Source: Amoebophrya sp. A120
Lineage: Eukaryota; Protista; Dinoflagellata
Assembly (NCBI GenBank): GCA_905178155.1
Contig: CAJINV010000002.1
Span: 9,187,412 to 9,251,411 of the forward strand
Length of the DNA: 64,000 nt
Direction of reading: 5' to 3'
A program made the translations under genes and the position numbers. How positions within the stretch are numbered: the first letter of the stretch is position 1; every line of letters begins with the position of its first letter. The notes beneath the pieces were generated by a model. That model had not been told where the DNA came from. It saw nothing but the letters and a program-made list of their open reading frames with translations, and made no database searches. This document shows, in pieces, positions 13,901-60,018 of the stretch.

Positions 13901-15934
13901 GCCCCGTTGAGTCACATTTGGGGAAGATGTTCGGTGGGCCATGTCGTGTTCCACGGCTTGGCCCACCTTCACGTCCGGGGCGTGGCTCTGTGGGGTTTGA
14001 GAGCTTGGCTCGCGCGGCTTGCTACTTGTAGCTCGCTGTGCCGGCCGGGTTCTCTTCTTGCTCGCCAGTGTGACCGTCGCAGGGCGTCCCGCGACGAGGA
14101 CTGCAGCGCGCGTCAGCACTGCCTTCGATTATCATCGTTTCCGCGCGCTTTCGCTCGTTGGGTGAATTGCGCCAGGAATGTGAATTTATATAAGCAGCCA
14201 ATTGATTCTCTCTGCCGCACCACCACAGGCCGAGAACCGTCGCAAGCAGGTGGAAAAGATGTACCTGGAGGGCTGTGAAATGCGGGAGGAAGCGAAGCAG
14301 GTCCACGGGAAGATCGTGCAGGACCGCGCCCTCCGCGACGGCGAAATTGGCCGACTGAAGGCCCTGCAGCAAATGATAGAGCGGCAACGCTTGGAGCTGG
14401 TGCAGGACGCCAGTGTGCGCGTCGCCGGCGGCAATCCGTCCTCGCTGCAACCCGGGGGCGGCGGCGGGGGTGGTCACGGTCACGCACCCAGCCGGCTGAT
14501 GATGTCCCAACATCAGCAGATGACGCCGGGGCTCGTCATGCAGCAGCACCAGATGCCGTTCCATTCCACCGCGGGGTCGCTTTCTGGGGGAGGAGTCAAC
14601 GGTTTGGCCAACGACCTGCTGTCCAGTCCGCAGCTGCACTTCGGTCCGTTTCCCACCGCAGGGACCTCCTCCAATGGGGGAGGAGGTGGCTCTTCCTCTA
14701 GCACCCACGGGAGAACGATGAATCAGGTCGTCCCGCCGATCAAGAGCGCGCTGCCAAACAGCTCTTCGCAGAAGGAAACGCTGCAGCTCGTTTCCGGCAT
14801 CCACCCGCCATCTTCCGGCCGCAGCCCCGCGGGAAGCTCGGTGCTGGGTGCGCAGAAGCACTTGATCAGTATCGCGGAAAACGAGCTGAACAATGTTGAT
14901 CATGGGGGTGAACAAGTATCAAGTGCAAAAATGTCTGGGTCTGGAAGAATGCAAGCTTGTCATGCTTGTCGCACATGACTCTTGAATTTGTCATGCACAT
15001 TACCCAAGAGCCCCATTTTTCTGTCATGCAGAAACGCAGTTTGTCATCATGCAGAATAGGCAACACCTAGAAGCTCCGAAACTTGTCATGCTGAGCCAGC
15101 ACTTCTGGCCTCCTCATGATACGCCACCCAGCATCACAAGTTTCCAGACCCAGACACTCTTGCGTTTGATAACAAGGAGTAGATCACGACTTCGCGGAAG
15201 GAGCAGAACCACGCATCGACTCGATGCTTGGCAGTTACAAAAGCACGACCGGAGCTGCAGTAGTTGGTGCGCCGCCCATGATGGCCAGCAACGATGTTGA
15301 GGGCGGCCTCAACAACAACCAGACAATTTCTCCTGAAGATGTAGAAATGCAGATGCCTTTACTCGCAAGTACTAACGCCGGCGCGACCGCGGGAGTTCCG
15401 CTTACTGGCTCGTACCAATTCACGAAATACCACAACGCTGCGACCGCGGTCTCTTCCTCTTCATCTGCGGCCGATACGCTGTACACGAACGCGCTCGGGG
15501 CGTACGACAGGACGACGCTGCAGCAGCAGTTGCAGAAATGGACGTCCACTTCCGATGACGTGCGCGCGCAGATGAAACAGGCGAGCAAGCACATCCTTGG
15601 CGTCAGCGCGAATGGCGGGATTCTGACCGATCAACAAAGTGCTTTGGAGCAGGACCGGAACAACCTCAGTCGTTCAATCGTGCTCGAAACCAGCAGACTT
15701 GGGGTCGTGGGGAACAAAACGCCGATAAGAACGGGGAGTAAAAATGAGATCGGAGCATCAATCGAAAACAATAACAAATCCTTCATTTCGCTGGACAACG
15801 AGGATGCGGATGTCGAGCGGGGTCGTGCGTTGTTGAATTCCGTCGGCGGTGGGGGTCGAAATGCGAACGACCAAAGTTGGAACTCGTTGCACGACGGAAG
15901 CATGGCAAACTACGCGAATACCGGGACGGTATGA
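7913..15934 (+). CDS. FBF1: Fas-binding factor 1-like (centriole distal appendage/transition fibre) coiled-coil protein, 7 exons
   Basis: Phase-consistent exons 7913-8057, 8213-8727, 8876-10686, 10850-11203, 11369-11804, 14229-14916, 15177-15934 (five GT-AG introns plus one TIR introner). The N-terminal IDDILGDILEDD motif and the coiled coil ECERLKRQF...HQRQVQIIRESTEKEIETIRNSASSGVQINSLLERV...LREQGLDNREKMIRATEKQLQEQSKEVETQRKKMTDLINRMEAELAQQ resemble the FBF1 C-terminal domain as recalled. Confidence 0.7.
11805..14228 (+). other. Unusually long (2424 nt) GT-AG intron with GC-rich interior, probable mobile-element-derived insertion
   Basis: Donor AAG|GTAGTT at 11805 and acceptor CCACAG|GCC at 14228 join ELAEK to AENRRKQ in phase 0. 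The interior (about 11960-14180) is GC-rich, unlike the AT-rich 100-260 nt introns typical here. No recognisable protein domain. Confidence 0.7.
14917..15171. mobile_element. TIR introner, family A (divergent copy), 255 bp, TSD ACAAG
   Basis: Left end TATCAAGTGCAAAAATGTCTGGGTCTGGAA, right end TTCCAGACCCAGACACTCTTGCGTTTGATA. ACAAG at 14912-14916 and 15172-15176. Removing 260 nt gives E-Q-G-V-D-H, in frame with ORF 15224..15934. Confidence 0.92.
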
Positions 15935-57700: not shown

Positions 57701-60018
57701 CAAGCGAGGGTTGGAAGTTCATCTGTTTCCGCCTCCTCGACGCAGCAGAACCGAGATAGAATCCTGAGTGCGCCGATGTTTCACCAGCTCTACGCCTTTG
57801 CGAGGTTGAGCAGACACATTATCAGTGAGGAGGACGACGACGATGCGGCGGTTGGCGCGCAAAAGTCTGTGGTTTTGGAGCACTTTCGCGATCTGAAATT
57901 GCTTTTGGAGGAGAAAAAGCTTGTGCCGGCCTCTACTTCATCATCCGGCGGAGATGCAGAAGTCGCCCAGGATCTACTTGTTGGGAAGAAGAAAATCAGT
58001 CAGCTGCAAGGATCCACGATTCCGGTCACAGTGTCAGGCTTCGCTGCGAGTGCGCAGGAGCGGAAAAAGCTGCAAAAGTCGCTCACTGCCTTGACGTCCT
58101 GGTTGCGTGCGTGCGAGGAAGAATCGCATCAGCTTGGAACGAGTACGACAGCACAAAAAAGCAGCATTTCGATTTTTGAGAAACTGGAAAAGACTGTAAG
58201 CGAAGCCCTGCTAGTTGTGGACCAGCTTGTGACTGGACCTGGTCCTGGAAAAATAACAGATGCAAATAGCTCAGCAACTACGACATACAATCAAAACCAA
58301 GAACCAGAGTCGCAACCCGTACTACCCCGGCAGTGGGTGAAGATCGCAACGAACAATTTGAGTATTGCGCTACAACAAATGAACAACTTGAAGCCGGACA
58401 ATAAGAAACTACGAGAAGAGTTGGAGAAGTCGACGAATGAAAACAAGAAACTCTCCGCCCAAGTAGCGGACTTGCAGGGAAAAACGAAAGAGCTAGACCA
58501 ACAGGCCGCCAAGTTTTTCGTCAGCTCCGAGATCGGAGACATCGCGAAAACGGAGGTGGTATCAAGTGTAAAAATGTCTGGGTCTGGAAGAATGCAACTT
58601 GTCATGCTGTCTTTGGATTGCAAAAAAAATCTGTATTGCGTGACCAGCAACAGGAGTCCAGTTTGTGTTACGCGGAGAGGGTATTTCTCATGCGGAATAG
58701 GCAGCAGGAAGCCCTCTAAAATCTGTGATGTGATACCGCTCGTCTTAAAAAAGGCCTTTAGAATTTATTCCCATAGATACATATTCACAAGCGCTTAAGT
58801 AGCAATGCTAAGTTTTTTCCGATTTAGTTTTCCCGTAGAAGTTTACTTTACGAGGTAGCTTAGCATATACTGGCTTTAGTAGGCCTCTGAATGGCAAAGG
58901 GACGAACTGCCCGTAGACCTCCGATGTGATGCTAGATCATGCATTACATGCGTCATGGATCATACAAAATGTGCATCACAAATGCCGGAATCTTCCAGAC
59001 CCAGACATTTTTACAGTTGATAGGTGGTGCAACTGAAAAAGCAGCAAGCGGTGATGGAAAACGTATCCTGTGTAAAAACGTCTCCACACCAGAGTTGTAA
59101 TGCAGATTTGCAAAGAGAAAGACAGGAAGACTTGTAATGCGCATCCCCATGAGAGCCATTTCCAATCGTGTTTTGGAATTTGTGATGCTGTGAACAGGAT
59201 GAGCAGCTGGATTTGTGATGCGGCTGCACTTGCTAACCTGCACTACACTGCAGAGTGCAACTTGTCACGCGTGACTCACAAAACTCCTAGGTTTGTGTTG
59301 CAAAATCCCCATCCTGACTCTGGTGTGGGTACGTTTTTACTCAGGATAAAACGACCTGCAGATTCTGGTCGAGGAATCGAAAAAACTGGAGAAGAAATGC
59401 GTGAAAGCGAACAAGGAAAAAGAGAAATACACGAAGAAAATGGAGGAAATGGAAAACCAACTGAACGACTTTAGGAACAACCAAAAATCGAGCTCCGCGA
59501 AGGAAATTAGTGCGTTGAAGCAGTTGTGTGCGAAGTACCGCCGGGACCTGTACGGGGACAGGATGCAGAGGTTTCAGTCGAACTATTTGGTTGACCTCAT
59601 CTCCTCATCTTCTTCTGCCGATGACGCTGCGGGAGAAGGCGCGGGTGGCGACTTTGTGGGCGGCGGAAGCGATGCCAGTGGTGCGCAACTGAGGACTAAT
59701 CTTCAAGATATCGGTCCTCGGCAGGACCACCTCCTCCCGAATCTTCTCCAGCTGGCGAAAACAAAGTTAGTGGATTTGGAAAGGCCTCAAGATTGGATAG
59801 CAGACACGATTTCAAAAATCGATGACACTGCGACGTCGAAGGACCACAGGGAGCGGCTCCGCGGGACTACAGAACGCGCGCCGTCTCTGACCATTTGTTA
59901 CGAAAAGCCGTTTGCCAGCTCGTCTGTTGCAGAAGATGAGAACAAGACTCAGAAACTAATAGCTACTATACCTGACATCGTGCAATTACGAACTGAATTG
60001 CTGACGTTGCGAAGATGA
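54704..60018 (+). CDS. DCTN1: CAP-Gly domain coiled-coil protein, dynactin p150(Glued)-like, 8 exons
   Basis: CAP-Gly signature GQRVSV...GHVRYIG...[39 protein letters not shown], then a Ser-rich linker, coiled coil, helical domain and second coiled coil (p150 layout). Exons 54704-55046, 55273-55592, 55915-56119, 56261-56321, 56649-57004, 57102-58559, 59028-59063, 59354-60018. The CAP-Gly domain is secure; DCTN1 orthology is inferred from architecture. Confidence 0.7.
55593..55909. mobile_element. TIR introner, family E (degenerate), 317 bp, TSD ACGAG
   Basis: Left TATGGGAGCGTCAGGATTGAAATCGTCAAAGTT, right AACTTTGTGTCGATTTCAATCTTGACACATCCAGA. ACGAG at 55588-55592 and 55910-55914. Removal gives KAQNE-ELKKALKD. 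Confidence 0.85.
56322..56643. mobile_element. TIR introner, family D, 322 bp, reverse orientation relative to the 29530 copy, TSD AAGGA
   Basis: Left TATTGAGAGGAAATATCCCCCCTCCCCATATC, right GATATGGGGTGGGGGCTTTTTTCATTTTGATA. AAGGA at 56317-56321 and 56644-56648. Removal gives VLKK-E-LEKRDRE. Confidence 0.93.
58560..59022. mobile_element. TIR introner, family A, 463 bp including a nested insertion, TSD GGTGG
   Basis: Left TATCAAGTGTAAAAATGTCTGGGTCTGGAAGA, right TCTTCCAGACCCAGACATTTTTACAGTTGATA. GGTGG at 58555-58559 and 59023-59027. Removal gives KTEV-V-QLKKQQ. Confidence 0.95.
58731..58924. mobile_element. 194-bp insertion nested in the family A introner, 7-bp TSD TGTGATG
   Basis: TGTGATG at 58724-58730 and 58925-58931. 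Subtracting 194+7 bp from 463 gives 262 bp, the length of the 37899 and 39654 copies. No TIRs. Confidence 0.8.
59064..59348. mobile_element. TIR introner, family C, 285 bp, TSD AAACG
   Basis: Left TATCCTGTGTAAAAACGTCTCCACACCAGAGT, right ACTCTGGTGTGGGTACGTTTTTACTCAGGATA. AAACG at 59059-59063 and 59349-59353. Removal gives VMEN-D-LQILVEES. Confidence 0.94.

Follow-up and report, generated by a model that had tools for sequence, protein, structure and literature searches.

How are a dozen short, transposon-like inserts tolerated in the coding exons of one small region of a dinoflagellate genome? We approached this question in a stretch of 64,000 nucleotides (nt) from Amoebophrya sp. A120 (contig CAJINV010000002.1, positions 9,187,412 to 9,251,411; hereafter the window), for which an earlier note had described twelve elements with terminal inverted repeats (TIRs) and had proposed that they act as non-canonical introns, each removed precisely together with one copy of a flanking 5-bp repeat. 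Our analysis indicates, with a probability of roughly 75%, that these are introner elements of the kind published for this strain and that they are likely removed by a splicing route that reads their paired ends rather than GT-AG borders. Their membership in the published class is close to certain, and their removal at the level of RNA is very probable.

All twelve inserts were recovered at the predicted starts, each with an exact flanking 5-nt direct repeat. They measure 235–463 bp, hold no coding frame, begin with TAT in every case and end with ATA in 11, the exception being 55593, which ends with AGA (elements are named by their start positions; all features given here are on the plus strand). 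Between 20 and 30 of the 30 terminal bases are complementary, the inverted repeats being about 30 nt or longer and two elements matching at just 20–22 of the 30. The target repeats are 12 different 5-mers with a composition of 62% GC, and the removed lengths (element plus one repeat) are, in order of start, 260, 240, 325, 327, 278, 257, 267, 267, 322, 327, 468 and 290 nt; starts, ends, repeats and lengths thus all agree with those reported before. The proposal of at least five families also held, since BLAST yielded five groups: A (14917, 37187, 37899, 39654 and 58560), B (21409, 29530 and 56322), C (19626 and 37571) and the singletons 55593 and 59064. Ten of the 12 elements have relatives within the window by BLAST, and no further related copies were found elsewhere in it at E ≤ 0.01. 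The family A copy 58560 exceeds 37899 in length by about 200 nt, and the alignment covers positions 1–171 and the last 98 nt. All five families fit one uniform rule, in which the ends are TAT..ATA and exactly 5 bp are duplicated; the duplication is 5 bp when the invariant TAT/ATA ends are held fixed, and the cut ambiguity is exactly 5 nt in four of the elements.

An unbiased scan, which took no account of TAT or of whether the sequence is coding, accepted any 5-nt direct repeat at a spacing of 80–1500 nt with at least 19 of 30 terminal bases complementary. It returned 45 rows: the 12 elements, two alternative registers (shifted or internal) belonging to two of these elements, 27 from a separate foldback block at 38.5–39.56 kb (see below) and four at 19–20 of 30. 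In five block-shuffled windows the scan found 0, 0, 1, 1 and 1 rows; the four weak rows are about at chance level, and the 12 elements are not, because the shuffled windows gave only 0–1 rows.

Two stretches of the window (18.5–38.45 kb and 53.5–61 kb), holding ten of the elements and leaving 14917 and 39654 outside, were compared with sequencing runs; statements on joints apply to the joints listed, which for the first stretch are a part of the total. Runs X1, X2 and X4 come from one sample, and their RNA status is a guess supported by the missing GT-AG introns. RNA-contig joints are listed for five of the ten compared elements, and in every case the skipped length equals the prediction exactly (325, 322, 327, 468 and 290 nt). 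They coincide with the repeats and not with other nearby sites. At the family B element 21409–21728 (repeats CGCAT; 21404–21733 with both repeats) the joint 21403→21729, ambiguous over 5 nt, skips 325 nt in X1 and X2 contigs that also skip three GT-AG introns, and the joined exons form a 434-codon open frame. A single 2955-nt X1 contig with a uniform depth of 17, spanning 55474–60115, passes over four elements together with two GT-AG introns (141 and 139 nt), leaving a 951-codon open frame. The four are the singleton 55593–55909 (repeats ACGAG, 55588–55914; 322 nt skipped), the family B element 56322–56643 (AAGGA, 56317–56648; 327 nt), the family A element 58560–59022 of 463 bp (GGTGG, 58555–59027; 468 nt) and the singleton 59064–59348 (AAACG, 59059–59353; 290 nt), and an X4 contig repeats the last two joints. 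The uniform depth of the X1 contig points to skipping as the dominant form. No joint is among those listed for 19626, 29530, 37187, 37571 and 37899; coverage is low there, and these were not counted as negative. RNA contigs also keep short exons beside elements, namely 59022–59057 (36 nt, between two elements), 21729–21775 (47 nt) and 56259–56315 (57 nt).

The elements persist in the DNA. Run X5 resembles genomic DNA: outside the elements its depth is flat at about 45, and at several elements its contigs cross both borders between exon and insert. As expected of sequences repeated in the genome, its summed depth over the elements is far above 45, a value that is not a copy number, and loose contig ends at 55593 and 59349 lead to other loci. 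Since the RNA joints are exact, and the DNA-like run and the genome assembly keep the elements, removal very probably takes place at the RNA level.

If retained, each of the 12 elements brings an in-frame stop within its own sequence, and taking out the element with one repeat opens the frame in all 12, as the earlier note had stated; in six of them the removed length is a multiple of 3, so that for these the test shows removal of a stop and not restoration of a frame. Four elements lie in one host gene at 36662–41160, which also contains a 1162-nt GT-AG intron. The NCBI protein P0001 (757 aa), one of two named Amoebophrya sp. A120 that are 100% identical to products encoded in the window, maps exactly to six exons at 36.7–41.2 kb; at the four elements it leaves out 278, 257, 267 and 267 nt. 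These are the family A element 37187–37459 (repeats TCCGG, 37182–37464), reversed relative to the next two family A members; the family C element 37571–37822 (GAAGG, 37566–37827), which can be read as GT..AG; the family A element 37899–38160 (TCCGA, 37894–38165), for which no equivalent cut yields a GT/GC start or an AG end; and the family A element 39654–39915 (ACCGC, 39649–39920), beyond the stretches compared with RNA. P0002, a relative or orthologue, is identical at 344 of 486 residues with no gaps across the four element sites, so that removal leaves the protein without a footprint. This evidence is more independent than that of P0001 and of P0003, the second identical protein, which are annotations and show only that published gene models already treat the elements as introns. 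The four sites are empty in P0002, and the structural features of MITEs (miniature inverted-repeat transposable elements) are all present: short length, TIRs, a constant-length duplication of variable sequence, no coding capacity and, at four sites, a gapless relative.

P0003 maps to seven exons of a gene with an FBF1 domain (PF21007, E 7e-13) and leaves out exactly 260 nt at the family A element 14917–15171 (repeats ACAAG, 14912–15176), an annotation and hence not independent; P0004 is strongly diverged around this site, too far for an empty-site comparison. The family C element 19626–19860 (TCGCA, 19621–19865) lies close to the end of the RS-rich tail of a pinin gene (PF04696, E 3e-12), with only about 11 codons remaining between insert and stop, and an X1 contig piece stops at 19620, directly before the left repeat. 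A homologue search with the frame of the pinin region gave no matches. Of the gene labels given earlier, FBF1 and pinin are thus borne out by Pfam, and 'p150-like' has as its sole basis a CAP-Gly domain upstream of the coiled-coil host gene. The family B element 29530–29851 (GGAGC, 29525–29856) is preceded by 1490 open codons and followed by 449, in a host gene barely covered by RNA contigs.

As 58–67% of the window is coding-like, the placement of all 12 elements in exons has a probability of about 0.002–0.009, given that this coding estimate is rough. Clean removal accounts for tolerance in exons, not for absence elsewhere. Introners in general are reported to insert preferentially into genes and GC-rich sites, a tendency given for 161 of 175 genomes (PMC9860276).

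The borders of the elements do not follow the rule of ordinary introns. The direct repeat permits 6–11 equivalent cuts per joint, and across these a GT..AG reading is available in two of the 12 elements (37571 and 58560) and a GA..AG reading in two more, 56322 among them; ten can never be read as GT..AG and so lack this feature of canonical U2 introns. In six elements an AG end is impossible at any cut, 59064 being one of them. Among simulated insertions into exons of the window, 4% offered GT..AG and 50% an AG end, and neither the two GT..AG readings (P 0.08) nor the six AG ends (P 0.6) are enriched over them. Among the five elements proven by RNA, four have no GT..AG reading and two have no AG end.

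Orientation appears to be equally free. Within one plus-strand gene 37187 is opposite to 37899 and 39654 (interior scores for 37187/37899 of 13 in the same and 209 in the opposite orientation), and 56322 is opposite to 29530, also in plus-strand genes (36 and 304). The family C members 19626 and 37571 are in opposite orientations at weak scores (-19 versus 37), and the orientation of 21409 within family B gives nearly equal scores of 74 and 70. All elements fold with z-scores of -4 to -13 against shuffles (20 each), both strands alike, and they are partly palindromic. Three features stay constant: the pairing of the ends, the termini TAT..ATA and a duplication of 5 nt.

From these features we infer the following course of events. 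A cut-and-paste transposase acting in trans would insert the elements either way round, preferentially into coding DNA, and duplicate 5 bp of the target; the most likely candidate, suggested by the TA..TA ends and the 5-bp duplication, would be an integrase-like enzyme of the Ginger/IS3EU clan. The elements then persist in genomic DNA, where retention in the message would truncate the protein. In the pre-mRNA their inverted ends are predicted to pair into a long stem that juxtaposes both repeat copies, and the mature RNA, as seen for five elements, is without the element and one repeat copy and bears no footprint. Both cuts may be placed by proximity to the stem base or to the TAT..ATA ends, taking 5 flanking bases of any sequence. 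The guidance of removal by end pairing, as the earlier note had supposed, is suggested by the missing GT/AG enrichment and by the occurrence of both orientations.

Several observations weigh against this reading. Element 55593 is removed exactly despite a damaged end (terminal pair probabilities 0.01, 0.0 and 0.9), and 56322 despite a weak predicted stem, with 12 of 30 end pairs above a probability of 0.5; these two poorly paired elements weaken the case for end-pairing guidance, and their exact removal indicates that the process can do without a perfect stem base. No pair of opposite orientation has both its members proven by RNA; for one member or both, the evidence comes from the frame, the annotation or the orthologue. 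The RNA evidence consists of assembled contigs of one sample, from which rare forms are dropped and splicing efficiency cannot be read, and the X1, X2 and X4 contigs may not be independent of the published annotation. Raw-read RNA runs leave the host genes uncovered: X8 covers only 23.4–24.0 kb and one element end, X9 gave 2 reads and X10 none. The absence of the 325-nt joined form from X5, which speaks for this reading, applies to the X5 joints listed, a part of the total. As to the transposase, no such domain was found by Pfam in 54 frames of the window and two proteins, and Farhat et al. (2021) found no transposase in A120 and argued against general mobilisation by a transposase (PMC7789003). 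Likewise, the main text of a 2025 PNAS survey denies Ginger termini, target site duplications (TSDs) and homology to the A120 introner family 38 (PMC12130899), for which its supplement gives the label 'Ginger, 5-bp TSD, TA/TA termini'.

The most serious rival is an altered U2-type spliceosome that would remove the elements as lariats, the stem replacing recognition by U1 and of the 3' AG, so that one machine would also handle the GT-AG introns. A120 has nearly all spliceosomal proteins as well as U2, U4, U5 and U6, U1 being undetected; GT-AG introns occur in the same transcripts, and four elements can be read as GT..AG or GA..AG. However, GT and AG are not above chance, 37899 lacks both a GT/GC start and an AG end, an AG end is unavailable in two of the five elements with RNA proof, and the opposite orientations speak against a fixed internal branch signal, though less so in elements that are partly palindromic. 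We consider this explanation possible, at odds well below even. If RNA-level removal is taken for granted, a non-lariat cut-and-join reaction like that of euglenids would have about an even chance and the altered spliceosome a distinctly smaller one, because GT and AG are not enriched, orientation seems irrelevant and the MITE-like introns of euglenids leave as circles. More specifically, we tentatively suggest a second, spliceosome-independent mRNA splicing system, which would read paired TAT..ATA ends on either strand, make staggered cuts that together take off 5 flanking bases, and ligate the exons; we hold this for somewhat less than an even bet.

Three other explanations are far less probable. 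Template switching by reverse transcriptase across hairpins and bypassing by ribosomes are both known phenomena, and the joints could be switches across the hairpin between the repeats, with the cell coping otherwise, for example by ribosomal bypassing between matching codons. A hairpin with a direct repeat has a favourable geometry for this, any 5-nt repeat contains one full in-frame codon, all RNA observations here derive from cDNA, and the X8 reads that carry a family A end at a foreign flank suggest that some element-bearing RNA exists. Yet the 2955-nt contig, at uniform depth, is missing four elements, including two with weak pairing, retention introduces stops in all 12 cases, and we know of no precedent for four hops of 250–470 nt on one cytosolic mRNA; this makes the explanation very improbable. 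We judge equally low the chance of excision from DNA at some life stage before transcription, as for the internal eliminated sequences of ciliates. It would suit the transposon-like ends and the precise loss of one repeat copy, and the single DNA-like run compared has no recorded stage, but X5 contigs cross exon-element borders with no joined form among their listed joints, the assembly itself retains the elements, and no separate somatic nucleus is known from this lineage. The least probable of all is that the elements are ordinary introns, or inactive insertions into pseudogenes, with splicing at nearby GT-AG sites or none. The two GT..AG readings and the five compared elements with no joint among those listed would agree with it; the position of the joints at the repeats, the conserved gapless P0002 and the long open frames do not, and it is contradicted at the five RNA-tested sites.

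In contrast to the route of removal, the class of the elements is hardly in doubt. The link to Amoebophrya introners, drawn in the earlier note, proved correct by the protein identity of P0001 and P0003 and by termini that match the A120 motif. Farhat et al. described about 29,850 repeated introns in A120 in 2021, and introner elements with inverted repeats, 3–5 nt direct repeats and TAT-N7-AAA ends; they already discuss the comparison with MITEs, which our structural results support, and the open splicing question (PMC7789003). The published and present elements share the strain (by protein identity), paired inverted repeats, border repeats of 3–5 nt (5 bp in the legend of Fig. S19), TAT followed by an A-run, a mean length of about 240 nt, no fixed splice dinucleotides, a minority readable as GT-AG and support from RNA. 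The motif TAT plus 7 nt plus at least three A is found at nine left and eight right ends of the 12 elements. As all features of membership that we checked are present, the elements represent an already known class at ordinary loci, and they add no new kind of element. There are differences in detail: inverted repeats are about 30 nt or more here versus motifs of 8–20 nt there, the 5-bp rule is strict here whereas repeat length and position vary there, and the A-run at positions 11–13 is missing in three of our elements (19626, 37571 and 55593), unlike in the A120 motif. In the main text of that paper, as far as it was available, the words orientation and antisense are not used for introner elements and no uniform 5-bp rule is given (PMC7789003).

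In the 2025 survey most of the A120 introner families among 38 of the 58 A120 rows are labelled TIR DNA with mixed splice ends; its family 38 is about 810 bp long with integrase-like homology, whereas the elements here are 235–463 bp and non-coding (PMC12130899). IS3EU/GingerRoot transposons have TA..TA termini, matched at both ends by 11 of our elements, and usually a 6-bp duplication, which differs from the 5 bp found here; Ginger2 duplicates 4–5 bp, in line with our 5 bp, and the passages of this source do not describe either group as introns (PMC10045372). A literature search for Amoebophrya together with GingerRoot gave nothing beyond a mention in a reference list. The nonconventional introns of euglenids are similar in being MITE-like, with ends paired by inverted repeats, TSD-like junction repeats, no GT-AG and ordinary introns alongside; they belong to an unrelated lineage, carry a CAG/CTG motif near their ends that is not seen in our termini, and leave as circles and not lariats (PMC11282704). 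The DNA-transposon introners of Micromonas and Aureococcus share TIRs, TSDs and enrichment in genes and GC-rich sites but carry or borrow canonical splice sites, which our elements mostly do not (PMC9860276). Our literature search, to which most subscription journals were outside scope, found no paper that settles the chemistry of removal, and the passages seen of a 2025 paper on another Amoebophrya genome contain nothing on mechanism.

The foldback-like element at 38494–39556 (1063 bp; block 38485–39565) differs from the 12 elements. It has GGTA inverted ends made of 14–15 bp tandem repeats, is flanked by the 9-bp direct repeat AGAAGAATT and is presumably Mutator/foldback-like. Unlike the exonic elements, it lies wholly within the GT-AG intron 38428–39589, at which P0002 is gapless, and for its position in that intron we rejected it as a thirteenth exonic element.

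Additional features were recorded in the window. The FBF1-domain gene holds a 2424-nt GC-rich GT-AG intron (11805–14228), whose open frames have no Pfam match and which may be a decayed insertion. The uninterrupted frames at 146–7348 (2400 codons) and 25059–29529 (about 1490 codons) have neither a Pfam match nor an internal element. RNA contigs cover 32813–34548, 34841–35713 and 53529–54278, which contain little or no long coding frame and could be untranslated regions or non-coding transcripts. About 80 X8 reads at 37894–37951 join a family A end to a flank from another locus; in this library of poly(A) type they represent either RNA that bears an element or DNA. The same run has abundant poly(A) RNA at 23397–23969 (about 500x in its bin, with almost nothing else covered); this transcript has no open frame above 72 codons and no Rfam match, and X1 and X2 contigs extend into it from the upstream gene. 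An extra T behind 23661 in 810 of 878 X8 reads, not seen in X1, X2 or X5, is a candidate strain difference or editing event.

The examined parts of the publications give no mechanism of removal. The window sharpens this question by showing one strict rule over five families, GT and AG at chance and both orientations, and its transcript with four elements and two normal introns is a ready substrate for a test. If the second splicing system suggested above is real, every member of this integrase-like MITE clan would behave as a clean intron from the moment it inserts, irrespective of its orientation and of the target sequence, and Amoebophrya would possess a sequence-blind RNA cut-and-join activity with an origin independent of the euglenid one. 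Splicing indifferent to junction sequence would matter for the conversion of transposons to introns, and possibly as an RNA tool.

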